The notes: generated from the sequence alone by a model not told the origin. 32,104 nucleotides of DNA from Actinomycetota bacterium (GCA_003563375.1 PWSB01000204.1:1-32104); one strand, 5' to 3'; shown: positions 2,371-31,203, numbered from the stretch's first letter. Made by a program: numbers and translations.

Positions 2371-2371
2371 A

Positions 2372-3583: not shown

Positions 3584-3584
3584 A

Positions 3585-8551: not shown

Positions 8552-8566
8552 AAAAAGGAGCATGAT

Positions 8567-12118: not shown

Positions 12119-12119
12119 A

Positions 12120-12317: not shown

Positions 12318-12323
12318 ATACCG

Positions 12324-13295: not shown

Positions 13296-13298
13296 TTC

Positions 13299-16310: not shown

Positions 16311-16346
16311 TAATCTTTAATATGTTTTTTAAGGAGATTTTTAAAA

Positions 16347-17168
16347 ATGATAGTTAAAAGTATTTTCGATCTAAAAGACAAAACAGCTGCTATTATAGGG
16401 GCAACAGGGTCTCTAGGTTTTTCAATTGCTGCAGGGCTAGCAGGTGCGGGAGCAAGGATTGCGGTATGCGGAAGATCCAATTACAGACAAAAAGCAGAAT
16501 CACTGGCAGGCAAAGGTATAGATGCAAAAGGTTATTATATCGATGTGATGGACAAGGATAAGATTATTCAATGTAGAAATAATATAATAGCTGATTTTAA
16601 GGGAGTCGATATTTTAGTAAATGCAGCAGGAGGGAATTTAAATGAAGCTACAACCAGCAGTGAGTTATCTTTTTTTGATCTAAAAAAAGAAAGCTTAAGC
16701 GAGGTAATAGATTTAAATCTCTTTGGCGGAGCCATACTCCCAGCCCAGGTATTTGGGAAAGAAATGGCAGAAAACAGTGGGGGAGGCTCGATTATCAATA
16801 TTTCTTCTATGAATGCTTTTAGGCCTCTTACTAAAATTCCAGGTTATTCTGCTGCCAAGGCAGCGGTATCAAATTTTACTCAGTGGCTCGCAGTACATTT
16901 TGCACAGGAATATAATAAAAACTTGAGAGTAAACGCCATAGCTCCTGGGTTTTTTTTAACCAGGCAGAATCATTATCTATTATTTGACAAGGAAGAAAAT
17001 CTTACAGAAAGGGGCCGGTCAATAATAGCCCATACCCCGATGGCTGGGTTTGGCAAGCCCGAAGACCTTGTTGGAGTATGCGTATGGCTTGCCTCTGAAG
17101 CTTCAAGATTTGTTACAGGCATAGTTATTCCTATAGATGGCGGTTTTAGCGCATATTCAGGGGTATGA
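16347..17168 (+). CDS. Short-chain dehydrogenase/reductase, YjmF/UxaD-like (fructuronate/mannonate oxidoreductase candidate)
   Basis: 273 aa. It has GATGSLG (cofactor binding), NAAGGNLNEATT, and a catalytic Ser...YSAAK triad segment. Confidence 0.75.
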   Translation: MIVKSIFDLKDKTAAIIGATGSLGFSIAAGLAGAGARIAVCGRSNYRQKAESLAGKGIDAKGYYIDVMDKDKIIQCRNNIIADFKGVDILVNAAGGNLNEATTSSELSFFDLKKESLSEVIDLNLFGGAILPAQVFGKEMAENSGGGSIINISSMNAFRPLTKIPGYSAAKAAVSNFTQWLAVHFAQEYNKNLRVNAIAPGFFLTRQNHYLLFDKEENLTERGRSIIAHTPMAGFGKPEDLVGVCVWLASEASRFVTGIVIPIDGGFSAYSGV

Positions 17169-17225
17169 CTACCTGTTTTTGAGTGATTTATGTAAGCAGT
17201 CATTTAAAATTGAAAGGAATTTAGG

Positions 17226-18704
17226 ATGGAAAAAAAAGATTTGGGCCTTATAGGCCTTGCGGTTATGGGTCAGAACCTTGTGCTTAATATAGAATCAAAA
17301 GGTTATTCTGCTGCAGTATACAACAGGACAGAAAGCAGGACAAAGGATTTTATTGAAGGAAAAGCAAAAGACAAAAATATAGAAGCCGCATTTTCTTTAA
17401 AAAAATTTGTGGACAGCATCAAAAGGCCAAGGAAAATCATGCTTATGGTAAAAGCCGGCAAGCCTGTAGACAATACCATTGAAGAAATCCTTCCCTTGCT
17501 TGAGCCGGGAGACCTTCTAATAGACGGGGGGAATTCATTTTATAAGGATACCATAAGAAGGGAGGAGTTTCTTTTAGAAAAAAATATCCTATACATAGGT
17601 ACCGGAGTTTCTGGCGGTGAGGAAGGGGCTCTTCTGGGTCCTGCCATTATGCCTGGAGGAAAGAGGAAGGCATATGATATGGTAAAAGATATATTTTCAG
17701 ATATTTCAGCAAAAGCAAAAGATGGCAAACCATGCGTATCTTATATAGGGCCAAATGGAGCCGGGCACTTTGTAAAGATGGTCCATAACGGGATCGAGTA
17801 CGGTGATATGCAGCTAATAGGAGAGTGCGTATGGGGTTTGAAGAATGCCCTTGGTTGGAATTCAGAACAAATTGCAGACATAATGGAAGAATGGGACAGG
17901 CCTTCTGACATATTATCCTCTTATCTTATAGAGATAACCGGCAAGGGGATGAGGGAGACCGAAAAGAAATCGGGAAGCTACCTGGTAGACAGGACCGCTG
18001 ATATTACCAGGATGAAGGGGACAGGCACATGGACGGTTGCAAGCGCTCTTGAGCTGCTTGTTCCAATACCTACAATAGCAGCAGCGGTATTTTCAAGGGA
18101 AACGAGCCAGGATAAGGACTTGAGGCTTGGGATTTCAAAGATATTGAAGCCGGCGGCTTCTAAAATAGATTTAAACGGGCAAAAATTCACTGATATAGCC
18201 CACGACGCCCTGTATATTGCCAAAATCTCTTCATACGCCCAAGGTTTTGCACTAATGGAGGCAGCGTCTTCTAAATACGGCTGGAACCTTGATATGGGAA
18301 GGATTGCCGAAGGTTGGAGAGCTGGATGCATAATACGGGCACAGTTTCTATCAAAGATCACTGAAGAATACAAGGCAGATCCAAAATTGCCCAATCTTAT
18401 GGCAGCGCCTTATTTTTCTAAATTTATCAACCAGAAACTTGTAAGCCTTTCAAGGTTTATTGAGGTTGCCCGCCATGTTGGAGTGCCTGCTCTTGCGATG
18501 GGGTGTGCTTATGACTACATACTTCAGATAGCCTCTCCTGTCATGGTATCAGCGCAGGTAGCCGCCCAGCAGAGGGACTACTTCGGCGCTCACGGCTATT
18601 TTAAGCTTAAGGATTCCCAAGAGATAGAGCTAAAACCTGATGGAAGCTACCAGGAATATCATACAGAATGGATGGAGGATGGCCGCCCGGAAAAAAAGTT
18701 ATAG
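17226..18704 (+). CDS. gnd: 6-phosphogluconate dehydrogenase, decarboxylating
   Basis: 492 aa. It shows GLIGLAVMGQNLVLN, GGNSFY, GTGVSGGEEGA, GAGHFVKMVHNGIEYGDMQLI and QRDYFGAHGY. Confidence 0.9.
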   Translation: MEKKDLGLIGLAVMGQNLVLNIESKGYSAAVYNRTESRTKDFIEGKAKDKNIEAAFSLKKFVDSIKRPRKIMLMVKAGKPVDNTIEEILPLLEPGDLLIDGGNSFYKDTIRREEFLLEKNILYIGTGVSGGEEGALLGPAIMPGGKRKAYDMVKDIFSDISAKAKDGKPCVSYIGPNGAGHFVKMVHNGIEYGDMQLIGECVWGLKNALGWNSEQIADIMEEWDRPSDILSSYLIEITGKGMRETEKKSGSYLVDRTADITRMKGTGTWTVASALELLVPIPTIAAAVFSRETSQDKDLRLGISKILKPAASKIDLNGQKFTDIAHDALYIAKISSYAQGFALMEAASSKYGWNLDMGRIAEGWRAGCIIRAQFLSKITEEYKADPKLPNLMAAPYFSKFINQKLVSLSRFIEVARHVGVPALAMGCAYDYILQIASPVMVSAQVAAQQRDYFGAHGYFKLKDSQEIELKPDGSYQEYHTEWMEDGRPEKKL

Positions 18705-18730
18705 AAAAAATACTGATTTAGGAGGCTGAT

Positions 18731-19810
18731 ATGACAAGTGAGTTTCGCAAAGACTGCAAATATAGCCTGATTACACCTACAAGCATAGGGGTCCGCATCA
18801 CTCCAGCAGGCAGGCAGCCGGTTGATTGCAGTTCAACTTTTTTTATGCAGACTACCAGTGCCGAGACCAATGTCGCAAGCGTGTCTTCTTATTTGGGCTT
18901 GCCCGTAAAAGTTCTTACTGTATTTGTAAAAGACAGTCCTATTTCAAAAATGATAAAAAGCAATCTAATGTCAAGAAATATGTCCTTTGAAGGCAAGGAT
19001 GTTTTCCAGGGGGGGCCATGGGGATACCGCCACCAGTTCAACATTGCTGACAGCGGTTATGGCTCCCGGCGCCCCAGGGTCCAAAATGACCGCGCTGGGG
19101 AAGTTGGCAGGATACTGAACACAGAGGATTTTGACCTGGATAGGATTTTTAATAGTGAGGGAGTTTCCATCCTCCACCTTTCGGGTCTTATCGTCTCCCT
19201 ATCCAGGCAGACAGGAAGCTTTTGCAGCAAGTTGGCCAAAGCTGCAAAGGAGAGCGGGACAAAGATTTGCTTTGATCTAAACTACAGGGCTTCATTTTGG
19301 AAGAACCGGGAAGATGAGCTTGGTAAAACCTTTTCCCGTATTGCACAACTTACAGATTACCTTGTGGGCAATGAGGAGGACTTCCAGCTCTGTCTTGGCT
19401 TAAAGGGCCCTGAGGCCGGTGGGAGGAAATTGTCCTCAAAGATTGAAAGCTTTAAGGAAATGATAAAGGATGTAAGGGAAAAATATCCCAGTACATCTGT
19501 TTTTGCCACGACCCTTAGAGAGGTGGTCAATGCAAATCGCCATCTATGGGGTGCAATAATGCTTGAAGGTGAAAGTTGGCATGTAATAGAACCGCGTGCA
19601 ATTGAGGTTATAGACCGGATAGGGGGCGGTGACGGATTTGTGGGGGGAATGCTTTACGGCATACTGAAGGGCTGGGAGCCTGAAAAGTGGATACAATTCG
19701 GCTGGGCATCCGGAGCATTCGTAGCTACCCTGATTACAGATTATGCTACTCCTGCAGACGAAGAACAGATATGGGATATCTGGCGCGGAAACGCAAGGGT
19801 CAGGCGTTAA
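18731..19810 (+). CDS. PfkB-family sugar-acid kinase (2-keto-3-deoxygluconate kinase-like)
   Basis: 359 aa. It has the C-terminal PfkB signature RIGGGDGFVGGMLYG and LVGNEEDF. Its overall layout resembles the long KdgK-type kinases. SD AGGAGG lies upstream. Confidence 0.7.
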   Translation: MTSEFRKDCKYSLITPTSIGVRITPAGRQPVDCSSTFFMQTTSAETNVASVSSYLGLPVKVLTVFVKDSPISKMIKSNLMSRNMSFEGKDVFQGGPWGYRHQFNIADSGYGSRRPRVQNDRAGEVGRILNTEDFDLDRIFNSEGVSILHLSGLIVSLSRQTGSFCSKLAKAAKESGTKICFDLNYRASFWKNREDELGKTFSRIAQLTDYLVGNEEDFQLCLGLKGPEAGGRKLSSKIESFKEMIKDVREKYPSTSVFATTLREVVNANRHLWGAIMLEGESWHVIEPRAIEVIDRIGGGDGFVGGMLYGILKGWEPEKWIQFGWASGAFVATLITDYATPADEEQIWDIWRGNARVRR

Positions 19811-19816
19811 AGCCTT

Positions 19817-21100
19817 ATGAGATTTATTGAAGATATAAACGGTATAGGCAAAGGTAAGCTTACCGGATTCATAGCTTCTATTTTAGAAGGTATAAATCCA
19901 GGCAAAAAGGTACTTGTGATCATTCCAGATTATACAAGGGTTGATTTCACGGATATAATCTGTCCCCTTATTGTAGATATTTTTAAAAAGAAAGGGGCCA
20001 TAAACTTAGATTTTCTAAATGCTGGTGGAACTCATAGGGGGATGACAGAGACTGAATTTTTTTTAAAACTTGGCCTGAAGGAGAAAGACTCAAGCATATC
20101 TTTTTATAACCATGATTACAGTGACCCCAAGAACCTGGTAACCATTGGGAGCATCTCTTTAGAACTTGTTAAAGAAAAAACGGAGGGCCAGCTTCGCAGG
20201 GCGATACCTGTGACATTGAATAAATTAATATTTTCTGGTTACAACACTATTATTGCAGTCTCCGGTACCGGGCCGCATGAAGCAGCTGGCTACTCGGGGG
20301 GCCTGAAGATTTTTTTTCCAGGCATATCAGGTCCTGAAGTGATTGACCTATTTCATTGGGCAGCTGTACTAGTGGGAATACCCGAAATTATGGGTACTGT
20401 AGACAATAATGCAAGGGATATAATCAACGAGGGGGCGGGACTTATATTTAATGGCATAGGTTGTGATGTTTTTACTTTGAATATGGTGAGTACAGAGGAA
20501 GACCGTTCAGTAATACCTAATGGCCTGTATTTGGACAAAGGTTATGAGGGTTTTTTAAATGTTTACAGGGCTGCCGCTGCTTTAAGCTCTAAACTTCATA
20601 TCAAATACATTGACCGGCCGCTTGAACGGGTGGTACAAGTAATCCCGGAGCACTTGGACGAGATCTGGACTGCTGCAAAAGGTTCATACAAACTACAGAA
20701 GCCCGGTGTAATGGCGAAGGGGGGTGAAATAATCCTGTACGGGCCGCATATAAGGAGCTTTCACTCCAATAAAAAAATAGATGAAGAACTCAAGGAAGTA
20801 GGTTATCACTGCAAAGATAAAATCTGCAGCATATTAGGCTCTGGAAAAAAAATAAGCAGAAAAAGCGCTTCTCATCTTATTAATGCAGCAGGACCTGGCA
20901 GATTTGACCCTGAAGCTAAAAAAGAAGAGATGGACTTTAAGCTTACCCTTGCGACCCAGATTCCCATGCAAGCCTGTAAGTCGATAGGATTAAATTACCG
21001 AGACCCAAAAACTATAAATAGATCTGATTTTCAAAAACCAGGTAGACTCTGGATCGAAAAAGGGGGAAAATATCTTTATATGCGAAAAAAAGGGGGGTGA
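19817..21100 (+). CDS. LarA-like (DUF2088) nickel-pincer-cofactor-type 2-hydroxyacid racemase/epimerase homologue
   Basis: 427 aa. It has IIPDYTRVD and NAGGTHRG (His73). In GPHEAAGYSGGLKIFFPG...FH, residues His154, Lys164 and His180 reproduce the H-x9-K-x15-H spacing of the LarA catalytic His, the cofactor-tethering Lys and the Ni-binding His (recalled as H174/K184/H200 in L. plantarum LarA). Confidence 0.7.
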   Translation: MRFIEDINGIGKGKLTGFIASILEGINPGKKVLVIIPDYTRVDFTDIICPLIVDIFKKKGAINLDFLNAGGTHRGMTETEFFLKLGLKEKDSSISFYNHDYSDPKNLVTIGSISLELVKEKTEGQLRRAIPVTLNKLIFSGYNTIIAVSGTGPHEAAGYSGGLKIFFPGISGPEVIDLFHWAAVLVGIPEIMGTVDNNARDIINEGAGLIFNGIGCDVFTLNMVSTEEDRSVIPNGLYLDKGYEGFLNVYRAAAALSSKLHIKYIDRPLERVVQVIPEHLDEIWTAAKGSYKLQKPGVMAKGGEIILYGPHIRSFHSNKKIDEELKEVGYHCKDKICSILGSGKKISRKSASHLINAAGPGRFDPEAKKEEMDFKLTLATQIPMQACKSIGLNYRDPKTINRSDFQKPGRLWIEKGGKYLYMRKKGG

Positions 21101-21168
21101 TACGGAAATAAAATATGTTTTTATGCTTTTTATTAATTTCAAAGTCTTAGGGAAAGGCGGTATGTGAC

Positions 21169-21930
21169 ATGGACAAGGAATTTACTCTTTTTAAAGACAC
21201 CGTATCAGGTATTCTGGAAAAAATAACAGGTGAAGAAAAAAATATAAAAAAAGCTGCAGATTTAATTGCCAAAGCCTTGATAAAGGGCAAAATAATCCAC
21301 GTAATCGGAACCGGGGGCCATTCTAATATGGGAGCTGAGGAGATGTTCTGGAGAGCAGGAGGATTGATCCCGGTCAATGCTATATTGGATGCCGGAATAA
21401 ATTTGATCAATGGAGCAAGAAGGACCACTATAATAGAAAGGACACCAGGCTATGGAATAAAGGTGATGGATGCATACAATGTCGGCCAAACTGCCGGTGA
21501 GGTTATTATTATCATAAACGCCTGCGGTATTAACACCATGACCATAGATGTTGCGCTGGAGGCAAAAAAGAGAAAGATGAAGACCATAGGGGTGACTTCA
21601 ACTTCTTTTGCAGACACGATCCCGAAAGGCCATCCGTCCAGGCACCCGAGCAATAAGAATCTGCATGATCTTGTCGATGTTTTTATAAATAATCACCAGC
21701 CCATAGGGGATGCAGTTATAGAGCTTGAAGGTGCAGACCAGAAGGTGGGTCCTGTATCTACTATTTGCAATTCATTTGCAGTGCAGCTGTTAGTAATAGA
21801 GACTGCAAAAAAGATGATAGAATCCGGGAAAAAACCTTTGATATGGAGGAGTGCCAATATGCCGGGAGGAGATGAGGCTAACCGTGAATATTTTAAAGAG
21901 TATTCTAAAAGGATAAAGCATCTGCTGTAA
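21169..21930 (+). CDS. Single-SIS-domain protein, UPF0309-like
   Basis: 253 aa. The pattern IKKAADLIAKALIKGKIIHVIGTGGHSNMGAEEMFWRAGGLIPVNAI is typical of the UPF0309/SIS_2 group. Confidence 0.7.
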   Translation: MDKEFTLFKDTVSGILEKITGEEKNIKKAADLIAKALIKGKIIHVIGTGGHSNMGAEEMFWRAGGLIPVNAILDAGINLINGARRTTIIERTPGYGIKVMDAYNVGQTAGEVIIIINACGINTMTIDVALEAKKRKMKTIGVTSTSFADTIPKGHPSRHPSNKNLHDLVDVFINNHQPIGDAVIELEGADQKVGPVSTICNSFAVQLLVIETAKKMIESGKKPLIWRSANMPGGDEANREYFKEYSKRIKHLL

Positions 21931-21990
21931 GGAAAGTTTTTTAAGGAAAGATGCATTCTGTTTGCTTATAAATACAAATAGGGGGGTTTT

Positions 21991-22956
21991 ATGAAAAAGC
22001 GGATCACAAGAGATAATGAGCCTGGTTTTGTTTTTGATTACAATAAAGAACCCGTGCTCACGGTAGAGGAAGGAGAAAGTTTTATAGTTGAGACCGAGGA
22101 CAACCTGTCAGGGCTTATCAAATCAGAAAATGATCCCCTGGTCGAAAAGCTTAAAAATTTTACCAAATATGATCCTCCAAAGTTTAATCCTGTCCATGGA
22201 CCCATATATATAAAAGGCGCTGCTAAAGGAGATCTTCTGGAAGTAAGCATTGAGAAAATAATACCTGCCCAAACAGGTATTTCAGCTATAGACCCAGATT
22301 CAGGGCCTCTTTCTGAAAACAAAAAATGGCCGGAGCTTGGGGAAGCTCATATAAAGATCTTAAAAAATATCCCTGGTCCCAGCGGCACTACCAGGGACGG
22401 AAAGGCTGTCTACAGTAAAAACATCTCCTGGGACCTAGACCCTATGATAGGGACAATCGGAGTGGCTACAGAATATGAGATACATGGTACATTAAATGGC
22501 CAGAAACCTTGTTGCGGCAATTGGGATTGCAAAGATATCAAAGAAGGAAGCAAGTTATATCTAAATTGCTTCCATGAGGGGGCCCTCCTTTTCCTTGGAG
22601 ATGTACATGCCAGCCAGGGGGACACAGAGTGGAGCTGTTCTGCCAATGAGGTGAAAGCAGAAGTCACGTTAAGCTGCAGGGTTATCAAGAATAAGAAAAT
22701 CCCCTATGCAAGGATAGAAAGAGAGGAATCGATTATCCAATTATTTGCGGATAAGCCTATAGAGGATGCATTACATAGGGCTATAATCCATCTTATGGAA
22801 TGGATGGTCGAAGAATACGGGGTAGGTCCAAAGGATGCTTATATAATGATCTCATGTAGTTCTGAGTTCAAAGTAAAGGTTTACCAAATGATAAGGAGCC
22901 CAAATCTTCCTTACGTTGTCGGAGCAGAAATACCAAGAAAATATCTGAAGGGATAA
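21991..22956 (+). CDS. Acetamidase/formamidase-family amidohydrolase (FmdA_AmdA)
   Basis: 321 aa. It has NPVHGPIYIKGAAKGDLLEVSI and CGNWDCKDIKEGSKLYLNCFHEGALLFLGDVHASQGDTE, which match the family core (GGN.D...G..lylPV...GAl...GD.HA.QGDGE). Confidence 0.75.
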   Translation: MKKRITRDNEPGFVFDYNKEPVLTVEEGESFIVETEDNLSGLIKSENDPLVEKLKNFTKYDPPKFNPVHGPIYIKGAAKGDLLEVSIEKIIPAQTGISAIDPDSGPLSENKKWPELGEAHIKILKNIPGPSGTTRDGKAVYSKNISWDLDPMIGTIGVATEYEIHGTLNGQKPCCGNWDCKDIKEGSKLYLNCFHEGALLFLGDVHASQGDTEWSCSANEVKAEVTLSCRVIKNKKIPYARIEREESIIQLFADKPIEDALHRAIIHLMEWMVEEYGVGPKDAYIMISCSSEFKVKVYQMIRSPNLPYVVGAEIPRKYLKG

Positions 22957-23003
22957 AAGGTTTTAACCAATATAATTATTTTTTATTATACGAGGAAGTA
23001 AAC

Positions 23004-24134
23004 ATGAAATATGAATGCTTGTGCCGTATTCCAAGCAGGACCGGGATATTTAAATTAATATATGGTGATGGCAAAATCAAATCGCTAAAGCCTGTGGAGG
23101 CTTTGAATGTGACAGAGTATGATATCCTTTGGCTTACTGCGGGCTTATTTGATATGCAGGTAAATGGTATGATGGGACATTTCCTATCTTCAGATGATTT
23201 AAATGTCAAAAAAATCTTAGAGATTGACAGAGAACTTGAAAAAAGAGGGACTCTGTTTTGGTGTCCAACCATTTGCACTCAAGAAACCAGGATTGTCAAA
23301 AAAAACTTAAAAATATTGAAAAGGGCAATTGAGCAAAAAACGCGGACCGGGATTTTTGGTATTCACATGGAAGGCCACTACATATCAGATTTAGAAGGCT
23401 ATAGAGGCGTTCATTCTCCTGAGTACATAAGGGATCCAGACATTGGTGAATTTAATGAATGGCAAGAAGCCTCCGGAGGCAATATAAGGCTCTTTTCACT
23501 AGCACCAGAAAGAAATGGGGGTATCGATTTTATTAAATATTTGAGAAATCAAGGCATAAAGGCCGGCTTGGCTCATCATTCTGCAGAATACAGCTTGATC
23601 CTGGAAGCAGTAGCTATGGGAGCAGACCTGGCCACGCATTTGATCAATGGCTGTGTTCCTTTCATACACAGGCAGCATAATGTGATATGGTCTCAGTTAT
23701 CAATAGATGAGTTGTGGGCTAGTTTTATTGCAGACGGCCATCACATCCCGCATTATACTTTAAGAGCTGCAATAAAAGCAAAAGGCACCAATAGGTCAAT
23801 ACTGATATCTGACCTATTTTATCTTTCAGGTTTACCCGAAGGGACGTATATATCGGAATCAAATAGGAAGGAAGTAATACTTAAAGACGATGGTTTATGG
23901 ATAAAGGATGAAGATATGTTATGTGGGGCCGCAAAGACCTTGGACAGGGGAGTTGAGTTTATTGCAAGGTATTGCAACTTCAGTATTGAAGATGCCCTGG
24001 TAATGGCTTCAATAAATCCAGCCCTTTATTTTGGGATTGAAGATAAGATGATGATCTACCCGGGCAGAAAAGGGCCCTTAGCAGTATTTGCCTGGAAGAA
24101 TAATAAGCTAGAAGTCGAAAAAATCTTAAAGTGA
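23004..24134 (+). CDS. NagA/AgaA-like amidohydrolase (N-acetylhexosamine-6-phosphate deacetylase family, mononuclear Q-x-N subtype)
   Basis: 376 aa. It has FDMQVNG (Gln52/Asn54 replace the H-x-H pair, as in E. coli NagA), HMEGHY, LAHHS, THLINGC, ADGHHIP and LISD. SD GAGGAAG lies upstream. Confidence 0.7.
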   Translation: MKYECLCRIPSRTGIFKLIYGDGKIKSLKPVEALNVTEYDILWLTAGLFDMQVNGMMGHFLSSDDLNVKKILEIDRELEKRGTLFWCPTICTQETRIVKKNLKILKRAIEQKTRTGIFGIHMEGHYISDLEGYRGVHSPEYIRDPDIGEFNEWQEASGGNIRLFSLAPERNGGIDFIKYLRNQGIKAGLAHHSAEYSLILEAVAMGADLATHLINGCVPFIHRQHNVIWSQLSIDELWASFIADGHHIPHYTLRAAIKAKGTNRSILISDLFYLSGLPEGTYISESNRKEVILKDDGLWIKDEDMLCGAAKTLDRGVEFIARYCNFSIEDALVMASINPALYFGIEDKMMIYPGRKGPLAVFAWKNNKLEVEKILK

Positions 24135-24151
24135 CAACTGCTTATCATTTC

Positions 24152-24928
24152 TCATATTATTCTTGAAGCTGATTCCATATCTAAAAACAACTTGGCCTTT
24201 TTAGTCTTACGAAGGATTGAAGCAGGAAACTTAGGGTCTACAGGTTTATTTAAAGTTGAATATACAGCCCCTGACTTTCTGCTTTCGGGGACAATGCAAA
24301 ATATTCTTTTTGCTGCCAGTAATCCCGGAATTGTGACAGAAATCGCATGAGTGGGGACATCCTTTATAGATTTGAAATGCCCCTCGTTGATCTGTTGCTG
24401 ACGGCTTTTCTCTTCCAGTTTTACAACCTTTACCCAAACAGGATCTTCAAAATCTGCAACACCGGGTTCATTAAATGCAAGATGCCCGTTTTCACCTATA
24501 CCTGCGCAACAGACATCTATGGGATGGGCTTTAAGCAGATATTCATAACCTCTGCAGGCAGTTTCTGGATCTTGGGGATGACCAGGGACAGGGAAAAACG
24601 AACTTACATTAGCATGACGCAAAAAATTTTTTTTCAAATATGATGAAAAACTGGCGGGGTGTTCAAAGGGTAGATCAAGATATTCATCTAAATGGAAAAT
24701 ATTTACGGCGGGCCAATAAATATCTTTTATTTTGGTCAATTTCTTTAAAAAGCTTAGCTGTGAATTGCCTGTGGCCAGCATTATGTTTGCGATGTTTTTA
24801 CTACTGATAGCCTCTTTTATAGCGGCAGCGGCTTCTTCTGCTGCAGCTTCACCCATTTGCTGGTTTGTTTGATATATCTCTATGCTTAGATCATCGACTG
24901 TCTTTTCGTGCAATAAACCAGTCCCCAT
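24152..24928 (-). CDS. nagB: Glucosamine-6-phosphate deaminase
   Basis: 258 aa. It has LATGNSQ, HLDEY and GIGENGHLAFNEPG. SD AAGGAGG lies on the minus strand just upstream of the start. Confidence 0.85.
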   Translation of the reverse strand: MGTGLLHEKTVDDLSIEIYQTNQQMGEAAAEEAAAAIKEAISSKNIANIMLATGNSQLSFLKKLTKIKDIYWPAVNIFHLDEYLDLPFEHPASFSSYLKKNFLRHANVSSFFPVPGHPQDPETACRGYEYLLKAHPIDVCCAGIGENGHLAFNEPGVADFEDPVWVKVVKLEEKSRQQQINEGHFKSIKDVPTHAISVTIPGLLAAKRIFCIVPESRKSGAVYSTLNKPVDPKFPASILRKTKKAKLFLDMESASRII

Positions 24929-25193
24929 AAAAACCTCCTTTTTTAGAATTAAGCCTAATGAACACTAATTATTTAAATTATCCTGGGAGGATCCGCTCCG
25001 GCCCAAGTACTATCATGAAGTCCCTAAGCCTCCTATTAAGCACCAAACCGGATTTATGGTATCATAAATTTGGGAGACTAACAATTCCTCTTTTTAATAA
25101 AAAATTTACCTATGTGGCATATCCGGGATAGTGAAGAATAAGTTGGCCAGTGAAACTGTTATGGGAATGGTGATTTCACTATCAAAGAAAAAT

Positions 25194-25243
25194 TTGACAA
25201 TATTCAATATATTATCTTATAATTAATTATGCAAACGTTTTAA
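25194..25243 (+). promoter_or_regulatory. Near-consensus promoter TTGACA-18-TATAAT followed by a LacI/CcpA-type half-palindrome TGCAAACGTTTTAA
   Basis: TTGACA lies at 25194-25199 and TATAAT at 25218-25223. The 14-mer at 25230-25243 is CG-centred and is symmetric at 5 of its 7 base pairs. It sits about 335 nt upstream of the SBP start. Confidence 0.45.
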
Positions 25244-25577
25244 ATTTCTGTGGCCTATTGTTATTTTAATCAATTTTAGTATATTTTTGGATTATAAGAG
25301 GTTTAAGGATTTAAAAGATGAATTCTGACAAACTTAAGTCCCCAAAACGAAATTTATTTACCAGAGAAATTTCATGTGACAGAATTTATAACATGTCTCC
25401 TAAATATACCCATACAGGAAATCTAGTTATATGACGAAACTTTTAGAGAAAGAACTATATAAAGCTTACATAAGGTTTTAAGAATTTCAGTAACAGGAGG
25501 TGATATCATCAAAAGACCAATGGGATTTGTTTATATAAATAAATTCCAACATAATTAAAAAAATTGGGGGAGGAAAA

Positions 25578-26672
25578 ATGAAAAAAATAATATTATGTAC
25601 TCTGGTTGTTGTATTTGTTTCAACGCTTACTTTTCTAGGGACAGGTTGTAGGCCCGCAGCTGTAGAAGAAGAGCCTACTGCCGAAGAGCCTGCAGCCGAA
25701 GAGCCTGCAGCCGAGGAGCTTGTAGAAGAGCCTACTGCTGAAGAACCTGCAGCCGAAGAGCCTGTAGTGGTCGCAGAAGAGGATTTAAAATTCATACATA
25801 TCAACGCTAGTGATCCTGCAGATCCTTTTATATCCAAAATAAGTGTGGGTTGGAATGAGGCAGTAGAGAAATTAGGGGTAGATTCAGATGAACGATTCGC
25901 TTATGGAGACGTATCAACGATGATAGATTATACCAATGCAGCCATTGCAGAAAATGTGGACGGTATTTTTGTATTTAACAGTCTTGATGCAGATGCCCTG
26001 CACCCGTCTGTGGAGCAGGCTCTTGACAATGGGATTGCATTTGCTCTGGTGAGTTCCAGGGATCCTGTATTTGGTCCCGAAGACGTTTCTTTTGTAGGCT
26101 TTGACCTTGAAGAACAAGGATATACATCAGGCGAATGGCTGGCAGAACAATTGACAGAAGAAGGAAGGACAACTGATGTAAACGTTGGTATAATGGCAGA
26201 ATTTAATGCACCATATTCTCAAATGAGGAGTGCAGGGATTCTTGCAGCATTGGATGATGCAGGGATAACTTATAATGCCTCAGAAATTTATGAGGTCGGC
26301 GTAGACCTTGGAGAAGCGGTAAATATCGTTCAGTCTTATATGCTAGCTAATCCTGATACAGATGTTCTTTTGGGAATGGGCAGTTTGTCCAGCCCGGCAT
26401 GTGTAATGGTATTGCAGGATCTGGGATATGAACCAGGAGAGACCATATGGGCTGGTTTTGACCTTGCTCCTGAAGTTGTAACCGGAATAGAAGCTGGATA
26501 CGGAGCCAGTAATGTGGATGAGGTGTTCAACTACGGCTTCCTACCGGCTATTGCACTTTACCTGAGAGCGAAATATGATTTCCAGGTTGGAGACCTACCA
26601 GTTGCTACAGTAATGGTAGATTCCACCAATATTGAAGGATTTCTATATTGGGTAGACCAGGGAATAAAGTAA
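25578..26672 (+). CDS. Sugar ABC transporter substrate-binding lipoprotein (PBP type 1, CUT2-like) with a repetitive acidic linker
   Basis: 364 aa. It has a signal peptide with Cys24 (FLGTGC), a roughly 45-aa Glu/Pro/Ala linker, then a PBP1 core. SD GGGGGAGG lies upstream. Confidence 0.85.
   Translation: MKKIILCTLVVVFVSTLTFLGTGCRPAAVEEEPTAEEPAAEEPAAEELVEEPTAEEPAAEEPVVVAEEDLKFIHINASDPADPFISKISVGWNEAVEKLGVDSDERFAYGDVSTMIDYTNAAIAENVDGIFVFNSLDADALHPSVEQALDNGIAFALVSSRDPVFGPEDVSFVGFDLEEQGYTSGEWLAEQLTEEGRTTDVNVGIMAEFNAPYSQMRSAGILAALDDAGITYNASEIYEVGVDLGEAVNIVQSYMLANPDTDVLLGMGSLSSPACVMVLQDLGYEPGETIWAGFDLAPEVVTGIEAGYGASNVDEVFNYGFLPAIALYLRAKYDFQVGDLPVATVMVDSTNIEGFLYWVDQGIK
25662..25781 (+). repeat. In-frame tandem repeat encoding the (V/A)EEP(T/A)A linker
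   Basis: The exact 15-nt unit GCCGAAGAGCCTGCA occurs at 25680-25694 and 25695-25709, with a degenerate third unit at 25710-25724. At a higher order there are two 20-codon units, VEEEPTAEEPAAEEPAAEEL and VEEPTAEEPAAEEPVVVAEE. Confidence 0.85.
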
Positions 26673-26690
26673 ATCCCTTAGCTCTAGTAA

Positions 26691-26728
26691 CGGCAGGGAG
26701 TAGGAATTCTACTCCTTGCCGCTTTTTT
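26691..26728 (+). terminator. Rho-independent terminator/attenuator between the SBP and permease genes
   Basis: CGGCAGGGAGTAG (26691-26703) pairs with CTACTCCTTGCCG (26709-26721) to form a 13-bp stem with one G-U pair and a 5-nt loop. It is followed by CTTTTTT (26722-26728). Confidence 0.75.
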
Positions 26729-26781
26729 AAATTTGAGAAAAAGCTTTTAGATTCAATATATTACTTCTGAAAGGCGGCAGG

Positions 26782-27783
26782 ATGAATGACAGGACCACCA
26801 AAAATATAGGGAATTTGAATAATAAAAGTATAGCTAGCAGGATTGGGGCGATAAGAGAAATAATAATCTTTGGGCTGACAGTTGGTTTATTTATAATTTT
26901 TTATTTCACGACCAGAGGTATTATGTTTGCCCCTGCTACTTTAAGGATAATATTTGTTGCTGTTGCTGAATTAGGGCTGGTAGCTATTGGCATAACTATG
27001 TTAATCATAGCTGGAGAATTTGACCTTTCTGTTGGCTCAATATCAGCTATGGGTGCTCTATTGGCTGCCAGGTTTTATCAAATGGGAGTTAATCCGTTTT
27101 TAGCCCTTGGTATCTCTTTGATTGCGGGTATTGCCCTAGGTGGTTTTAATGGTTTTATAACGGTTAGGTTTAAGCTGCCATCCTTCATAATAACGTTGGC
27201 CACCATGATTGGTTACAGGGGCCTGATTTACGTGATCACCGAAGGAGTACCGATAGGTTTCAGGGTTATAGACACTCATCCCGGCTTTCACAGGTTGCTT
27301 ACGGGTATGCTGACAGTGATTCCTATTCCTTTGATCTGGCTTGTAGTGGGTACTGTGATCCTTATATTGCTGTTGAATTTTCGAAGGTTTGGTAACCATG
27401 TCTATGCTGTAGGGGGACACAAGGAAACAGCAAGGGCAATGGGAATAAATATAAATAAAACAAAAATGATCTGTTTCATGATTTTAGGGATGCTTTCTTC
27501 TTTTGCAGGGGTAATGAGAGTAACCCGTATAAGAAGTTTTCATTCGCTGCAGGGAGAGGGGATAGCCTTGCTGGCTATTGCTGCTGCAGTGATAGGAGGG
27601 ACTCTCCTTCAAGGCGGTGTAGGAACAATACTGGGTGCTGTACTGGGAACTATTGTCATCGTGCTGATAGAATATGGCCTTATAATGTCTGGGGTTGGTG
27701 CATATATGTACAACCTTGTTTTGGGAGCTGTTATTATAATAGTTGTAATATTAAACAATGTTATTGAACAAAGGAGAACATGA
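26782..27783 (+). CDS. Sugar ABC transporter permease (RbsC-like)
   Basis: 333-aa polytopic protein with the motif IAGEFDLSVGSISAM. Its stop overlaps the ATPase start (ATGA at 27780-27783). Confidence 0.9.
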   Translation: MNDRTTKNIGNLNNKSIASRIGAIREIIIFGLTVGLFIIFYFTTRGIMFAPATLRIIFVAVAELGLVAIGITMLIIAGEFDLSVGSISAMGALLAARFYQMGVNPFLALGISLIAGIALGGFNGFITVRFKLPSFIITLATMIGYRGLIYVITEGVPIGFRVIDTHPGFHRLLTGMLTVIPIPLIWLVVGTVILILLLNFRRFGNHVYAVGGHKETARAMGININKTKMICFMILGMLSSFAGVMRVTRIRSFHSLQGEGIALLAIAAAVIGGTLLQGGVGTILGAVLGTIVIVLIEYGLIMSGVGAYMYNLVLGAVIIIVVILNNVIEQRRT

Positions 27784-28511
27784 TGGAACAGGTTTCCCTG
27801 CTGGAAACTAAAAATATTCATAAATGGTATGGAAAAATACACGCTGTAAATGGGGTAAGTTTTACGATAGATAAAGGTGAAATTCTAGGATTGATAGGAG
27901 ACAACGGGGCGGGGAAATCATCTTTATTAAAAGTTCTGTCAGGATATCATTGTCAGGACCAGGGAGAGATCTTCATAGAAGGGGAAAAGGTGGTCATCAA
28001 CTCCCCAGCTGATGCCAGAGAGCTTGGGATTGAGACAGTCTATCAAGAAAGGGCATTGGTGGATTCTATGAGTTTGGCCAGAAACTTTTATATGGGTAGA
28101 GAACCTGTGAATAGAGCAGGATTCTTAAACAAAAGAAAAATGGCAGAATGCATAGATGTATTAAAAGAAATAGGGCTTACAATTAACTCTCCAGACTATC
28201 TTGTCGCCAATCTCTCAGGAGGCCAGAGACAGGGTGTGGCGATAGGCAGGGCAATGTATTTTAAGGCTAAAATGGTTCTTCTGGATGAACCCACAACGGC
28301 TTTGTCGGTAAAAGAAGTGCACAGGGTGCTGGATTTAGTGCTTGAATTTAAAGCCGCGGGGATTGCTGTAATCTTTATCACCCACAATATTCAACATGTT
28401 TATGATATCTCTGACAGGTTCTTGATATTAGAAAATGGAGAAAAAATAAAGGATATCGAGAAGGCCGGTACGTCTGTGAAGGAACTCTCAGAAGTCTTAA
28501 TGGGTGAATAA
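27780..28511 (+). CDS. ABC transporter ATP-binding protein, single-domain type
   Basis: 243 aa. It has Walker A GDNGAGKSS, signature LSGGQRQ and Walker B LLDEPTTAL. There is only one nucleotide-binding domain. Confidence 0.9.
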   Translation: MMEQVSLLETKNIHKWYGKIHAVNGVSFTIDKGEILGLIGDNGAGKSSLLKVLSGYHCQDQGEIFIEGEKVVINSPADARELGIETVYQERALVDSMSLARNFYMGREPVNRAGFLNKRKMAECIDVLKEIGLTINSPDYLVANLSGGQRQGVAIGRAMYFKAKMVLLDEPTTALSVKEVHRVLDLVLEFKAAGIAVIFITHNIQHVYDISDRFLILENGEKIKDIEKAGTSVKELSEVLMGE

Positions 28512-29984
28512 ATGCCTGAATACATGCTTGGGGTTGATATTGGTACCGGTAGCTGTAAAGCCACTATCCTTAGCAATGAGGGTAATATCATTGCTACATG
28601 TTCAAATAAATATAATACCCATTACCCTAAAAGGGGATGGGCTGAACAAAATCCCCAGGATTGGTATCAAGCATTAAAGCGCTCCCTGCATCATATTTTT
28701 GATAATACAGGCCTCAAAAAAAAAGACATAGTCTCGATCGGGATAGACGGGATGATGAACAGCCCTGTTTTCCTAGACCAAGAGGGCAGGATACTCCGCT
28801 CGACTATCATCTGGATGGACCAAAGAAGCGAGGCCCAAGTTAAATGGTTGAAAAAAAACTTAAAAAATAATATAAAATTTCCTATTACTTCTACTACACT
28901 TCTCAGCAAAGCCATGTGGTTAAAGGAAAATCAACCTGGTATATGGAAGAAAGTATGGAAGATCCTTTTGCCTAAAGATTTCATCAGGTTTAAATTAAGC
29001 AATTCTTTTGTCACTGATTTCTCAGATGCTTCAGCTACCCATTTATTCGATGTAGAAAAACTTACCTGGTCCGATGAGATCATTGGAATAACAGGTATAG
29101 ACAAGAAAAAACTCCCTGAAGCTGTTTCGTCTACAGAAATTGCCGGCCGCCTGTCCAAGGGTCCAGCTGAGGAATTAGGATTGCAGGAAGGAACCCCTAT
29201 AATAGCTGGTTGTTCTGATTCAGCATCTGATAATCTTACTGCAGGGGTAATATATGCAAATCAGTGTTTGATCAGGCTTGGCACCTGTGGTGCATTATTC
29301 ATGCTGATAGACAAATTGCCTGCCGGGCAATCAGAGCGATACTACATAATTGTACATTCCGTACCTGACAGGTGGATGATACATCTAGCCACACCGGCAG
29401 GTCTTGCAATAGAATGGTTCAAGCAGGCCTTTTGCGGGCAGGATTCTGTTATTACTAATGAAACATTTGATGCTAGGGCCAAAGGGATCCCGCCAGGTTC
29501 ACATGGCCTTATTTTTCACCCTTACCTATCAGGGGAACACACTCCTCGTGAAGGGTTTGACCTGAGGGGAGATTTTGTCGGAATAAATCATAAGCATACA
29601 AATGATCATTTTTTCAGGGCTGTATTGGAAGGCATCTCATTTTCCATCAAGGAGTGTTTTGAGACATTTGAAGAAATAAACCCACAAATTAAGTCTATCA
29701 GGGCAGTGGGCGGGGGGATGAAAAGCAGACTATGGCGGGAGATCTTAACAAATATCATCGGCAAAGAAATGGAACTCCCTGTTTTTGAGGACCCATCGTT
29801 TGGGTCGGGGCTGCTGGGAGGGATAGGGGTCGGCCTCTTTGAGGATTTTGAAGATGCTGTAAAAAAATGCGTCCAAATAAAAGAAAGAGTAAAACCCGAT
29901 AAATCAATTCAAATAAAGTATAGCGAGGCCTTTGATTTATATAAAAACGTACTTGATAGACTGCAGGACCTATTATGGATATAG
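28512..29984 (+). CDS. FGGY-family carbohydrate kinase (xylulokinase-like)
   Basis: 490 aa. It has MLGVDIGTGSCKATI, GWAEQNPQDWY and the C-terminal GGGMKSRLWREILTNIIG. The start codon directly abuts the ATPase stop (TAA-ATG). Confidence 0.85.
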   Translation: MPEYMLGVDIGTGSCKATILSNEGNIIATCSNKYNTHYPKRGWAEQNPQDWYQALKRSLHHIFDNTGLKKKDIVSIGIDGMMNSPVFLDQEGRILRSTIIWMDQRSEAQVKWLKKNLKNNIKFPITSTTLLSKAMWLKENQPGIWKKVWKILLPKDFIRFKLSNSFVTDFSDASATHLFDVEKLTWSDEIIGITGIDKKKLPEAVSSTEIAGRLSKGPAEELGLQEGTPIIAGCSDSASDNLTAGVIYANQCLIRLGTCGALFMLIDKLPAGQSERYYIIVHSVPDRWMIHLATPAGLAIEWFKQAFCGQDSVITNETFDARAKGIPPGSHGLIFHPYLSGEHTPREGFDLRGDFVGINHKHTNDHFFRAVLEGISFSIKECFETFEEINPQIKSIRAVGGGMKSRLWREILTNIIGKEMELPVFEDPSFGSGLLGGIGVGLFEDFEDAVKKCVQIKERVKPDKSIQIKYSEAFDLYKNVLDRLQDLLWI

Positions 29985-30045
29985 GATTTTAGGAAGTAAT
30001 TGGCCTGACCTACAAAATGCCATCATGTCCTTATAAGGAGTTTAA

Positions 30046-31203
30046 ATGAATAGCAGAGAGAGAGTTTTAGAAACACTTAAGCACCGCGAGCCAGATTTAA
30101 TACCTTTCGATATAGGAGGAGCACCGAACACTAATATACATATAATCTCTTATCGCAACCTATTAAGATATCTGGGAGACAATAGAGAAGTAAAGCTGGG
30201 AGATGCAATTTTTCAGACGTCATTGATAGACGAAGATATTCTACAGCGGTTAAAGGTTGACCTGCGGGGGCTGGACTTTGCTGTCTTTGGTTCAGAGAAG
30301 ATCCACAATGAGCTAAAAGAAGATGAGAAATACTTTTATTTCACCGGGGATTGGGGCATTGACTGGGTCATGCCCAAAACCAATGGACTATATTTTGACA
30401 TAAGGCGGCGGCCTTTATCCGGCAGGATTGACAGCAGGGATGTGGATGCAATAGATGTCCCCGGCATGCCTAGCCAGGAAGAAATCGAAATCTTTAAAAA
30501 GAAAGCAAATTATTTTAAAGAAAGTGGTTTGGCAGTGGTGCTTGCGGGACCTGACGGGGGCATACTAGAACATGCCTTTGCTATCAGGGGCCATGAAGAT
30601 TTTTTAATCGACCTGCTCTCAGAACCCGGCTTGGCAAAAAGGTTGCTTGATAAGATTTTAAGATATAAGCTAAACTACTGGGAACTTATGCTTGAACAAA
30701 TGGGGGACCTTATAGATATAGTTTCAGAAGGGGATGATATAGCCACCCAAAAAGGCATGATAATGAGTCCCCAGCTGTACCGGGATATGCTTAAACCATT
30801 TCACCGTGAACTTTTTTCTTTCATTAAAAAAAATGCAAAAAAACCGCTGTTCATAAATTTCCATTCCTGCGGAGCCATCAAAGAGCTTATCCCAGACTTT
30901 ATCGAGGCAGGAATAAATTCCTTGCACCCTGTACAGGTTAGTGCAAAAGGCATGGATACAAAGGAACTGAAAAAAGAGTTTGGGGACGACCTGACCTTTT
31001 GGGGAGGGGGTATTGACACCCAACATGTATTATCACGGGGCACGACAGAAGAAGTAAAGGATGAAGTAAAAAGGAGGATAGACGATTTAGCTCCGGGAGG
31101 CGGCTTCATATTTGCAGCCGTACATAATATCCAGGCAGATGTACCCCCTGAGAATATCATGGCTATGTGGGAGACGTTCAATGAGTTTAGGAGTTATAAA
31201 TAA
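30046..31203 (+). CDS. URO-D/MtaA-like fold protein, paralogue 2. Function unknown and probably sugar-related.
   Basis: 385 aa. It is a paralogue of 4830-5921. It has H273-S-C275 (FHSCG, 30862-30870) at the position of the MT2 zinc H-x-C motif, and the C-terminal block LAPGGGFIFAAVHNIQADVPPENIMAMW. SD AAGGAG lies upstream. Confidence 0.7.
   Translation: MNSRERVLETLKHREPDLIPFDIGGAPNTNIHIISYRNLLRYLGDNREVKLGDAIFQTSLIDEDILQRLKVDLRGLDFAVFGSEKIHNELKEDEKYFYFTGDWGIDWVMPKTNGLYFDIRRRPLSGRIDSRDVDAIDVPGMPSQEEIEIFKKKANYFKESGLAVVLAGPDGGILEHAFAIRGHEDFLIDLLSEPGLAKRLLDKILRYKLNYWELMLEQMGDLIDIVSEGDDIATQKGMIMSPQLYRDMLKPFHRELFSFIKKNAKKPLFINFHSCGAIKELIPDFIEAGINSLHPVQVSAKGMDTKELKKEFGDDLTFWGGGIDTQHVLSRGTTEEVKDEVKRRIDDLAPGGGFIFAAVHNIQADVPPENIMAMWETFNEFRSYK

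Follow-up and report, generated by a model that had tools for sequence, protein, structure and literature searches.

A candidate phosphate-independent counterpart of the NagA/NagB pathway with a distinct type of UPF0309 protein in Actinomycetota and other bacteria

Within a 32,104-nt stretch of DNA from an Actinomycetota bacterium (GCA_003563375.1 PWSB01000204.1:1-32104; this whole stretch is called the window, and positions are counted in it), three consecutive genes encode a UPF0309-type SIS protein, an FmdA-like amidase and a NagA-like deacetylase, here called the triad, and a convergent fourth gene encodes a NagB-like protein. We tentatively propose, as a serious possibility that falls a little short of probable, that these four proteins form a phosphate-independent counterpart of NagA/NagB acting on an N-acylated acidic amino sugar, probably of the N-acetyl-hexosaminuronate kind. 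N-acetylglucosaminuronate (GlcNAcA), N-acetylmannosaminuronate (ManNAcA) and N-acetylgalactosaminuronate (GalNAcA) are candidates, in which the C6 carboxylate would replace the 6-phosphate as the anionic handle. An earlier interpretation made from the DNA alone (the sequence-only reading) had suggested catabolism of an N-acylated amino sugar acid, for instance an N-acetyl-hexosaminuronate or an N-acetyl-hexosaminate, by deacylation and SIS-type deamination or isomerisation, leading into the uronate/gluconate branch. The first form of that suggestion is strengthened by the coupling of TRAP transporter, NagA-like and NagB-like genes in distant relatives, by the small number of kinases there, by fusions of the module with UxuA and an oxidoreductase, and by the replacement of phosphate-binding residues in the SIS and NagB-like proteins; N-acetylglucosaminate is rejected below.

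Replacement of phosphate ligands in the SIS and NagB-like proteins

The SIS protein is a member of the UPF0309/NagS family (NCBIfam PRK02947, 239.5 bits, cut-off 135) and matches Pfam SIS_2 over its full length with 121.4 bits. Its sequence matches in the PDB include BH3325 (3cvj, 4e-33) and NagS/SCO4393 (9eol, 3.5e-27). Its AlphaFold2 (AF2) model, with a predicted local distance difference test score (pLDDT) of 88, fits 3cvj and 9eol with template modelling (TM) scores of 0.88-0.89, and GmhA and MurQ with 0.57 or less; for MurQ, the TM score is ~0.55 at 14-19% identity. The protein had been assigned to an uncharacterised subgroup, a description that needs amending, as UPF0309 now has one characterised member, NagS (SCO4393; PDB 9eol), a dehydratase of N-acetylglucosamine 6-phosphate (GlcNAc-6P) from Streptomycetaceae characterised in 2025, in which His53, Arg64, Glu94 and Asp179 are essential and Ser91 and Asn228 important (PMC12680351). 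A search of the literature for UPF0309 by name returned no paper.

The catalytic set of NagS is found in the SIS protein as His51, Arg62, Glu90, Asp181 and Asn230, with Ser91 replaced by Thr87. Among the phosphate-binding residues of NagS, Ser54 is kept as Ser52, and Ser119 and Ser121 are replaced by Asn117 and Cys119: the loop that reads S119-L-S121-G-R-N in NagS reads N117-A-C119-G-I-N here, and the NagS phosphate site is not retained. Asn117, Ala118, Gly120 and Asn122 are invariant in 22 aligned orthologues from several phyla (58-85% identity). The loop [IV]-S-x-S-G-R-N (S-type) is shared by NagS, BH3325 and a second paralogue of the same island; the window SIS protein and every paralogue found adjoining a NagA-like protein with a Q-x-N metal-site motif carry N-x-x-G-[IV]-N together with a one-residue insertion ahead of the catalytic His (N-type). 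By these motifs UPF0309 appears to divide into S-type and N-type proteins, with the N-type apparently forming a separate, widespread branch. Because the NagS catalytic set is kept, the N-type SIS protein should deprotonate C2 of an open-chain sugar.

At E <= 1e-10, a protein search with the SIS sequence retrieved 1178 clusters; identity to the window protein is at least 57% in the top 120 of these. NagS homologues of ~30% identity from outside Streptomycetaceae are without GlcNAc-6P dehydration, and NagS proper comprises proteins of Streptomycetaceae only, with at least ~59% identity to S. coelicolor NagS and a divergent dmdR1 neighbour (PMC12680351). At ~28-30% identity to NagS, and with LarA-like and FmdA-like neighbours, the window protein lies outside NagS proper.

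The NagB-like protein scores 131.4 bits on TIGR00502, under the cut-off of 236.9 bits, and matches PDB 2bkv at 5e-27. Its catalytic residues are kept as Asp81, His149, Glu154 and Lys218 (equivalent to Asp72, His143, Glu148 and Lys208). The motif N-[AS]-R-[FY]-F, whose arginine binds phosphate in E. coli NagB (R172), is present in B. subtilis, S. mutans and human NagB and reads N-E-G183-H-F in the window protein, with Gly183 in place of the arginine. This arginine is missing from all ~30 SIS-linked NagB-like proteins, which keep the catalytic Asp, His, Glu and Lys208. From their motifs, the SIS and NagB-like proteins, two of the three enzymes that bind sugar, therefore appear to be without phosphate ligands. 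The NagB-like gene accompanies the triad in relatives; it belongs with the triad, and its product is the likelier deaminase.

The NagA-like deacetylase

The NagA-like protein scores 205.8 bits on TIGR00221, just below the equivalog cut-off of 225.65 bits. Alignments to 1ymy, 3egj and 2vhl place Gln52 and Asn54 at the position of the H-x-H metal pair, as had been seen in the sequence alone. The replacement is real; its apparent oddity is not, since the same Q-x-N occurs in NagA of E. coli (1ymy, 'DVQLNG') and V. cholerae (3egj) and marks the mononuclear NagA type of these two species (PMC6016474). Q-x-N is a known variant and gives no sign of lost function. The metal and catalytic residues are complete (Glu123, His137, His191, His212, His247 and Asp270, corresponding to Glu131, His143, His195, His216, His251 and Asp273 of E. 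coli NagA).

Loss of the anion-binding residues was looked for in the NagA-like protein, and both C6-anion residues, Asn215 (in H-L-x-N) and Arg223 (contributed by the partner subunit), are retained. NagA requires an anionic group at C6 and tolerates sulfate instead of phosphate (PMC6016474). Asn215 and Arg223 do not discriminate phosphate from carboxylate, and this enzyme could still use a phosphorylated substrate; its gene context argues for a non-phosphorylated acidic substrate other than GlcNAc-6P. SIS-linked NagA-like proteins fall into a Q-x-N class, which adjoins the transporter, and an H-x-H class, which always adjoins a NagB-like protein.

The FmdA-like amidase

The earlier assignment of the middle protein to the acetamidase/formamidase family is borne out by a Pfam FmdA_AmdA match of 97.2 bits (gathering threshold 27). 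On the formamidase equivalog NF045496 of NCBIfam it reaches 57.5 bits against a cut-off of 500, over residues 175-235 only. The nearest structures, 5ubu, 3tkk, 2ii1 and 2f4l (E down to 1.5e-34), are uncharacterised structural-genomics 'acetamidases' of ~300 residues. An AF2 model (pLDDT 86) gives TM scores of 0.80-0.84 to these four and 0.59 to 2wkn, the true formamidase/gamma-lactamase structures being far more distant. These comparisons place the protein (~320 aa) in the short structural-genomics subgroup, apart from the 400-aa formamidases.

The least certain point about the module is what the FmdA-like amidase does in it: a sugar role is weakly founded, because its orthogroup (45-62% identity) occurs elsewhere in unrelated contexts. 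In ~75 genomes it has no SIS, NagA or NagB neighbour, and the neighbourhoods of the orthogroup (79 loci) are heterogeneous, mostly non-sugar contexts, including Tdh/Kbl/SDR/FAD (flavin adenine dinucleotide) oxidase, 2-oxoacid dehydrogenase, and FGGY with transaldolase, which give no substrate-class assignment. It could be, although we consider it unlikely, that the protein stands outside the sugar pathway as a general small-amide hydrolase (acetamide, formamide or lactam) for nitrogen scavenging, or is there by chance; these contexts agree with such a role, as does the fact that all its structural relatives are uncharacterised 'acetamidases'. Its constant position speaks against it, the gene being fixed between the SIS and NagA-like genes in every close relative across four different arrangements, and so do distant FmdA-family members (26-32% identity) that independently adjoin N-type SIS genes in ABC-type loci (L083, L101/L107, L119 and L152; relatives are cited by locus number). 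FmdA-family genes, from different subfamilies, were found in 5 of the 13 SIS loci without TRAP genes, all five with an ATP-binding cassette (ABC) transporter, and in 0 of the 36 with TRAP genes (Fisher p = 7e-4, a test that overstates significance, as the loci are not phylogenetically independent). This distribution would be in keeping with an amidase that turns a neutral precursor, for example a uronamide or an N-formyl sugar, into the acid.

Gene neighbourhoods in distant relatives

Scanning metagenomes with the SIS alignment yielded 80 loci, whose open reading frames (ORFs) were labelled with the window proteins, and neighbours within 8 kb were clustered in 49 dereplicated loci, where the SIS protein is 56-62% identical across phyla. 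Genes of tripartite ATP-independent periplasmic (TRAP) systems, which are carboxylate importers, were present in 36 of the 49 loci (dctQ in 33, dctM in 31 and dctP in 26), NagA-like genes in 24 and NagB-like genes in 19. GntR/FCD regulators (12 loci), ABC permeases (10 and 7), LarA-like proteins (6), Zn-dependent alcohol dehydrogenases (6), FmdA-family proteins (5) and D-2-hydroxyacid dehydrogenases (4) followed. In loci spanning at least 10 kb (n = 22), TRAP genes occur in 18 and NagA-like or NagB-like genes in 19. No kinase family was found among the recurrent neighbour clusters of the 49 loci, and a kinase gene is present in only a few of them. The SIS gene typically lies directly 3' of dctQ, and in L145 the TRAP binding protein most resembles binders of sugar acids and sialic acid, with SiaP about equal to other sugar-acid binders. 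Beside orthologues of the window NagA-like protein (54-55% identity) stand a pair of N-type SIS genes and the genes for an ABC transporter, a GntR/FCD regulator and a cupin.

Genes of hexuronate catabolism join the module in different ways. L145 carries NagB-NagA-DctP-DctM-DctQ-SIS-UxuA on one strand, and L157 carries DctPMQ-cupin-NagB-NagA-UxuA-SDR, where the short-chain dehydrogenase/reductase (SDR) scores 430 bits on the D-mannonate oxidoreductase model. A kinase of 2-keto-3-deoxygluconate (KDG) is added in L110 and L134, the NagB-like gene directly precedes UxaE in L099, and the window lineage pairs the module with UxaE and a mannonate oxidoreductase. The module is thus connected, in four independent arrangements, with the fructuronate/mannonate/KDG part of hexuronate catabolism.

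Other gene sets were also seen around N-type SIS genes. LarA-superfamily genes lie directly between the N-type SIS gene and a NagA-like or FmdA-family gene at L164 9989-14053 and L119 5130-8239, with ~317-322 bits, below the malate/lactate racemase cut-offs; the window LarA-like protein, unlike these, is nearest a putative hexonate-epimerase family. Past the N-type SIS gene, L101/L107 (~12000-19800) carry two GFO/IDH/MocA oxidoreductases, an N-acylglucosamine 2-epimerase-family protein, a distant FmdA-family protein and an aldehyde:ferredoxin oxidoreductase, and in L001 and L170 a class-III aminotransferase and a GFO/IDH/MocA oxidoreductase stand beside the module. The gene sets of L101/L107 and L001/L170 may represent an alternative route for removal of the amino group.

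Organization of the window and of close relatives

In the window, the triad follows a LarA-like gene co-directionally, and the gaps of 68, 60 and 47 nt given in the sequence-only reading were reproduced. The nine-gene unit that it described at 14811-24134 could not be, as the interval holds eight + strand genes (UxaE, SDR, Gnd, PfkB, LarA-like, SIS, FmdA-like and NagA-like) whose intergenic gaps of 36, 57, 26, 6, 68, 60 and 47 nt exclude space for a ninth; nine are reached only by counting the convergent NagB-like gene or the divergent ROK regulator gene. A consensus scan found no terminator-like site in any gap of this block and folding of the gaps gave only weak AT-rich hairpins (-4 to -9 kcal/mol), in line with the earlier remark that no convincing terminator is present. 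The block from UxaE to NagA-like, on one strand with gaps of 6-68 nt, has the layout of an operon. A purine-rich ribosome-binding site precedes each triad gene, and the promoter scan found no promoter-like site within the 68-nt gap between the LarA-like and SIS genes; its total of 48 sites, against 38 +/- 6 from shuffles, is not informative. Searches of the entire window with Rfam (gathering thresholds) and ARAGORN gave no match. Co-transcription of the triad with the uronate block is plausible in the window. The stop codons of the NagA-like and NagB-like genes are 17 nt apart (24135-24151) without a terminator-like structure, and their transcripts would overlap or collide.

The close relatives are uncultured Actinomycetota whose triad proteins are 69-86% identical and occur in four arrangements. 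The gene order of the window is found in L004, L005, L088, L092 and L168. L001 and L093-L095 lack the upstream uronate block and combine the triad with the convergent NagB-like gene, ABC transporter, FGGY kinase and URO-D-like gene; the block is likewise missing upstream of SIS_2 in L089 and L090; L091 and L096 have the same downstream order, with an upstream sequence too short to judge. L099 is rearranged but linked, with LacI(-) followed by NagB-UxaE-SDR-Gnd-LarA-PfkB-SIS-FmdA-NagA on one strand, and L097 has LacI(-) followed by NagB-SIS without the uronate block. The junction between the LarA-like and SIS genes varies from 68 nt in the window to 223/234 nt in L004/L005, 808 nt in L088 and 2307 nt in L092, where an insertion sequence (IS) element with a 420-aa transposase-like ORF (8207-9469, - strand) separates the two genes; this insertion, exactly between LarA-like and SIS, marks the module boundary. 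In L095, the SIS gene comes first after a divergently oriented gene and opens its own unit. Because relatives carry the triad without the uronate block, the triad and NagB form a self-contained module that sits sometimes, but not always, behind that block. The earlier description of the triad as appended to the sugar-acid block gives way to that of an autonomous module, considering the at least seven relatives without the block, the IS element of L092 and the separate unit of L095.

Table 1. Genes of the module and flanking genes in the window.
Feature	Position	Strand	Basis or remark
ROK-family (NagC/Mlc-like) regulator, divergent	13299-14561	-	Pfam ROK; NCBIfam NagC-like, 96.8 bits
UxaE	14811-16310	+	Pfam, NCBIfam
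SDR D-mannonate oxidoreductase	16347-17168	+	Pfam, NCBIfam (family model 342 bits)
Gnd	17226-18704	+	Pfam, NCBIfam
PfkB KDG-kinase-like kinase	18731-19810	+	Pfam, NCBIfam
LarA-like nickel-dependent hexonate epimerase homologue	19817-21100	+	Pfam, NCBIfam
SIS (UPF0309) gene	21169-21930	+	253-aa ORF
FmdA-like gene	21991-22956	+	321-aa ORF
NagA-like gene	23004-24134	+	376-aa ORF
NagB-like gene	24152-24928	-	Convergent with NagA-like gene
Monosaccharide-type ABC transporter	25578-28511	+	Pfam, NCBIfam
FGGY xylulokinase-like kinase	28512-29984	+	Pfam, NCBIfam
URO-D/MtaA-like protein	30046-31203	+	Pfam, NCBIfam
Second NagA, H-x-H, first 286 codons to window end	31245-32104	+	Translation

The window is a mosaic of sugar operons (Table 1). 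The upstream sugar-acid block (14811-21100) is probably the downstream half of the pathway, and the 249-nt intergenic region in front of it (14562-14810, 21% GC) probably holds promoters. The downstream unit (25578-31203) is syntenic with the triad in L001, L004, L088, L093-L096 and L168. Beyond its last gene, the URO-D-like one, and so preceded by the FGGY kinase, comes a pair made up of the second NagA, which scores 312.6 bits on TIGR00221, over the cut-off, and is 29% identical to the NagA-like protein, and an S-type UPF0309 protein: on the near-identical contig L168 (18747-20463), the second NagA is followed by a UPF0309 protein with the S-x-S-G-R-N loop (PRK02947, 200 bits), 33% identical to the window SIS protein. 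Putative phospho-type and non-phospho-type NagA/UPF0309 sets, as told apart by their motifs, thus coexist within 10 kb and serve as an internal control. With the canonical NagA, the S-type UPF0309 protein and the FGGY kinase on the same contig, the two sets are not redundant.

Further features of the flanks were recorded. A 649-nt spacer (24929-25577) between the NagB-like and ABC binding-protein genes has a GC-richer stretch at ~24985-25060 and contains a perfect sigma-70 consensus, TTGACA-18-TATAAT, at 25194-25223; with no Rfam match in it, its length is not accounted for by a riboswitch or other RNA. The ABC binding protein (25578-26672, +) has a lipoprotein-like N-terminus and an acidic (A/P)EEP(A/T)AEE repeat linker ahead of Peripla_BP_4. 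The FGGY kinase is barely over the xylulokinase cut-off (TIGR01312, 382.3 against 380.25 bits), odd beside a canonical NagA. Two URO-D-fold proteins, at 4830-5921 (+) and 30046-31203 (+), are weakly similar to MtaA/CmuA methyltransferases (50-70 bits), and both genes lie at ABC clusters, the former just upstream of the first cluster and the latter closing the ABC/kinase cluster. Elsewhere, too, genes of the URO-D-like kind recur near N-type SIS genes, including Spirochaetaceae (L083 393-1562, L102 15363-16565 and L111 15367-16557); O-demethylation or decarboxylation would be candidate roles in a sugar context, both questionable. Far upstream, a double-SIS GlmD/AgaS-like gene (1306-3355, -), with 173 bits to the archaeal-type glucosamine-6-phosphate (GlcN-6P) deaminase model and so below its cut-off, lies with a PfkB ribokinase-like gene (3585-4598, +) next to a LacI regulator, and these genes (1306-4598) may form a third amino-sugar or fructosamine-type module. 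An overlapping Polbeta/NTP_transf_2 nucleotidyltransferase and HEPN pair at 57-1050 (+) resembles a type VII toxin-antitoxin system.

Proposed pathway and alternative explanations

From gene content, motifs, folds and conserved linkage we infer both the substrate and the reactions that follow. The substrate would be taken up by the ABC system here and by a TRAP carboxylate transporter in most other lineages. The Q-x-N NagA-like enzyme would strip the N-acetyl group, and the NagB-like protein would carry out an aldose-ketose deamination to ammonia and a keto-uronate, namely fructuronate in the gluco/manno series or tagaturonate in the galacto series. The N-type UPF0309 protein would abstract the C2 proton for 2-epimerisation (manno to gluco) or for beta-elimination at C3, and the FmdA-like protein would hydrolyse a second amide (N-formyl or uronamide) where a neutral substrate enters via an ABC transporter. 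In the window, the keto-uronate could then pass through UxaE, the SDR as a fructuronate reductase (to mannonate), the LarA-like protein (to gluconate), and the PfkB kinase and Gnd to ribulose-5-phosphate; in other organisms, UxuB, UxuA and KdgK would handle it. A wider version of this proposal, possible but on the doubtful side, is that N-acetyl-hexosaminuronic acids, along with the neutral amides or N-formyl derivatives of these sugars, are broken down in bacteria from anoxic sediments and bioreactors by an as yet undescribed pathway that is phosphate-independent, in which NagA/NagB paralogues would be retuned to the C6 carboxylate, the N-type SIS protein would contribute a new reaction, FmdA would make the substrate, and entry would be at fructuronate/tagaturonate. 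The structure predictions confirmed folds only and added no functional information.

Several points weigh against a uronate substrate. The Asn and Arg retained in the NagA-like protein are those that bind phosphate in canonical NagA, and linkage to UxuA/UxuB is seen in only 2 of the 49 loci. In other lineages, the LarA-like neighbours of SIS genes are of a different subfamily, nearest malate/lactate racemases. At least seven close relatives (L001, L089, L090, L093-L095 and L097) have the triad without the uronate block, and an IS element splits the LarA-like and SIS genes in L092. The proposed role of the SIS protein spans two alternative outcomes, and a literature search for an amino-uronic acid catabolic pathway, which could serve for comparison, found none. 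The unrelated contexts of the FmdA-like orthogroup and the non-independence of the loci in the Fisher test belong here too.

Apart from a passenger role of the FmdA-like protein, which concerns one part of the module, two alternatives for the whole have to be weighed. In the first, which we regard as improbable, the module serves ordinary phospho-amino-sugar catabolism of GlcNAc-6P or the 6-phosphates of N-acetylgalactosamine (GalNAc-6P) or N-acetylmannosamine (ManNAc-6P); the SIS protein would have an accessory part, as isomerase or dehydratase, and the uronate operon would be an unrelated neighbour by chance within a sugar-utilisation island. The NagA-like protein, with every catalytic and anion-binding residue, a score close to the nagA cut-off and a Q-x-N also found in E. 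coli NagA, speaks for this explanation, and the mosaic nature of the window, the relatives carrying the triad without the uronate block and the ROK (NagC-like) regulator nearby are compatible with it. However, a canonical NagA, an S-type UPF0309 protein and a kinase are already present 7 kb downstream, the phosphate-binding residues are gone from the SIS and NagB-like proteins, and orthologous modules have TRAP carboxylate transporters and, in few cases, a kinase gene. Moreover, L145 and L157 show fusions of the module with UxuA/UxuB, and distant UPF0309 homologues are without GlcNAc-6P dehydratase activity (PMC12680351).

A second alternative, which we consider quite improbable, is that the substrate is N-acetylmuramic acid (MurNAc) or another 3-O-substituted acidic amino sugar, from which the SIS protein, as a MurQ-like etherase/lyase, would release D-lactate; the NagA-like and NagB-like proteins would finish the sugar, the LarA-like protein or 2-hydroxyacid dehydrogenases would take the hydroxy acid, and the FmdA-like protein would cut a stem-peptide or amide. 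MurQ is likewise a single-SIS enzyme that abstracts the C2 proton and eliminates at C3 on a 2-acetamido sugar. UPF0309 is its sister clade, and half of the reaction of MurQ is carried out by NagS (PMC12680351). MurNAc, being a carboxylate, is compatible with TRAP uptake, and malate/lactate-racemase-like LarA proteins (6 loci) and D-2-hydroxyacid dehydrogenases (4 loci) recur beside SIS genes. Yet the UxuA, mannonate oxidoreductase, UxaE and KDG kinase genes in the same operons are left unexplained, the context being one of uronate enzymes rather than of MurNAc transport or kinase genes; the SIS protein matches MurQ weakly in fold and sequence (TM 0.55 against 0.89 for NagS), and the family closest to the window LarA-like protein is that of the putative hexonate epimerases rather than lactate racemase. 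In addition, mycobacterial NagA showed no activity on MurNAc 6-phosphate (PMC6016474).

Sialic-acid catabolism was considered, given TRAP genes adjoining nagA and nagB, and ruled out, as there is no recurrent aldolase, ROK kinase or epimerase cluster; N-acetylglucosaminate (GlcNAc1A) was also ruled out, as an aldehyde is required for chemistry of the NagB and SIS types, and OngB and OngC, the enzymes known for it, are from other families.

Comparison with known systems

None of the closest known systems matches the module in composition; the sequence-only reading likewise knew of no characterised operon of this kind. The proposed uronate route shares with the NagA/NagB pathway (E. coli nagBA and B. 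subtilis nagAB) the enzyme families, the catalytic residues and the sequence of deacetylation and deaminating isomerisation, but both window proteins score under the equivalog cut-offs, the NagB-like protein lacks the phosphate-binding Arg, and the modules come with few kinases, TRAP transporters and uronate enzymes rather than leading into glycolysis. With NagS (SCO4393) it shares the UPF0309 fold (TM 0.89) and the catalytic His, Arg, Glu, Asp and Asn, whereas the Ser119/Ser121 loop is replaced, the dmdR1 synteny is missing and the partners are a TRAP or ABC transporter, a NagA-like and a NagB-like protein.

Rodionova et al. reportedly described a UxaE variant of the hexuronate pathway in Thermotoga in 2012. 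The operons of the module share UxaE, the short-chain fructuronate reductase, UxuA and KDG kinase with the hexuronate (Ashwell) pathway, but the known entry is by glucuronate or galacturonate via the isomerase UxaC, whereas here there is no UxaC and entry would be via deacetylation and deamination of an amino-uronate. The Haemophilus influenzae SiaPQM-nagA-nagB cluster likewise has a TRAP transporter for an acidic N-acetyl sugar beside nagA and nagB; in contrast, no NanA-, NanK- or NanE-like cluster is among the recurrent neighbours here, and the N-type SIS gene, sometimes with UxuA/UxuB, is found instead.

The route for GlcNAc1A in oxidative chitin utilization (OngB deacetylase, OngC deaminase and KdgK) also handles an acidic N-acetyl amino sugar in unphosphorylated form and ends at KDG, and it is apparently the only such route described (PMC9537276, PMC12017989). 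Its substrate is an aldonic acid without an aldehyde, for which NagB-type isomerisation is chemically impossible, it has no SIS-type or NagB-type enzyme, and OngB is related to D-aminoacylases, not to NagA.

Biological significance

Surface polymers of bacteria and archaea, including capsules, O-antigens, teichuronic acids and archaeal walls, commonly contain amino-uronic acids (GlcNAcA, ManNAcA, GalNAcA, N-acetylgulosaminuronic acid (GulNAcA) and the amides of these). The module is made of known folds and known chemistry, apparently re-anchored from phosphate to carboxylate. Even if the guess at the substrate is wrong, the split of UPF0309 into S-type and N-type, with their differing partners, is a usable annotation rule. 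If the proposal is true, the large, tightly conserved and so far unassigned N-type branch of UPF0309 would receive a function, as would the Q-x-N NagA-like paralogues, at present annotated by pipelines as 'GlcNAc-6P deacetylase', and the Arg-less NagB-like ones, annotated as 'GlcN-6P deaminase'. The module would then show how a phosphosugar pathway can re-anchor on carboxylate, and would supply a missing piece of how carbon and nitrogen from microbial necromass are cycled.

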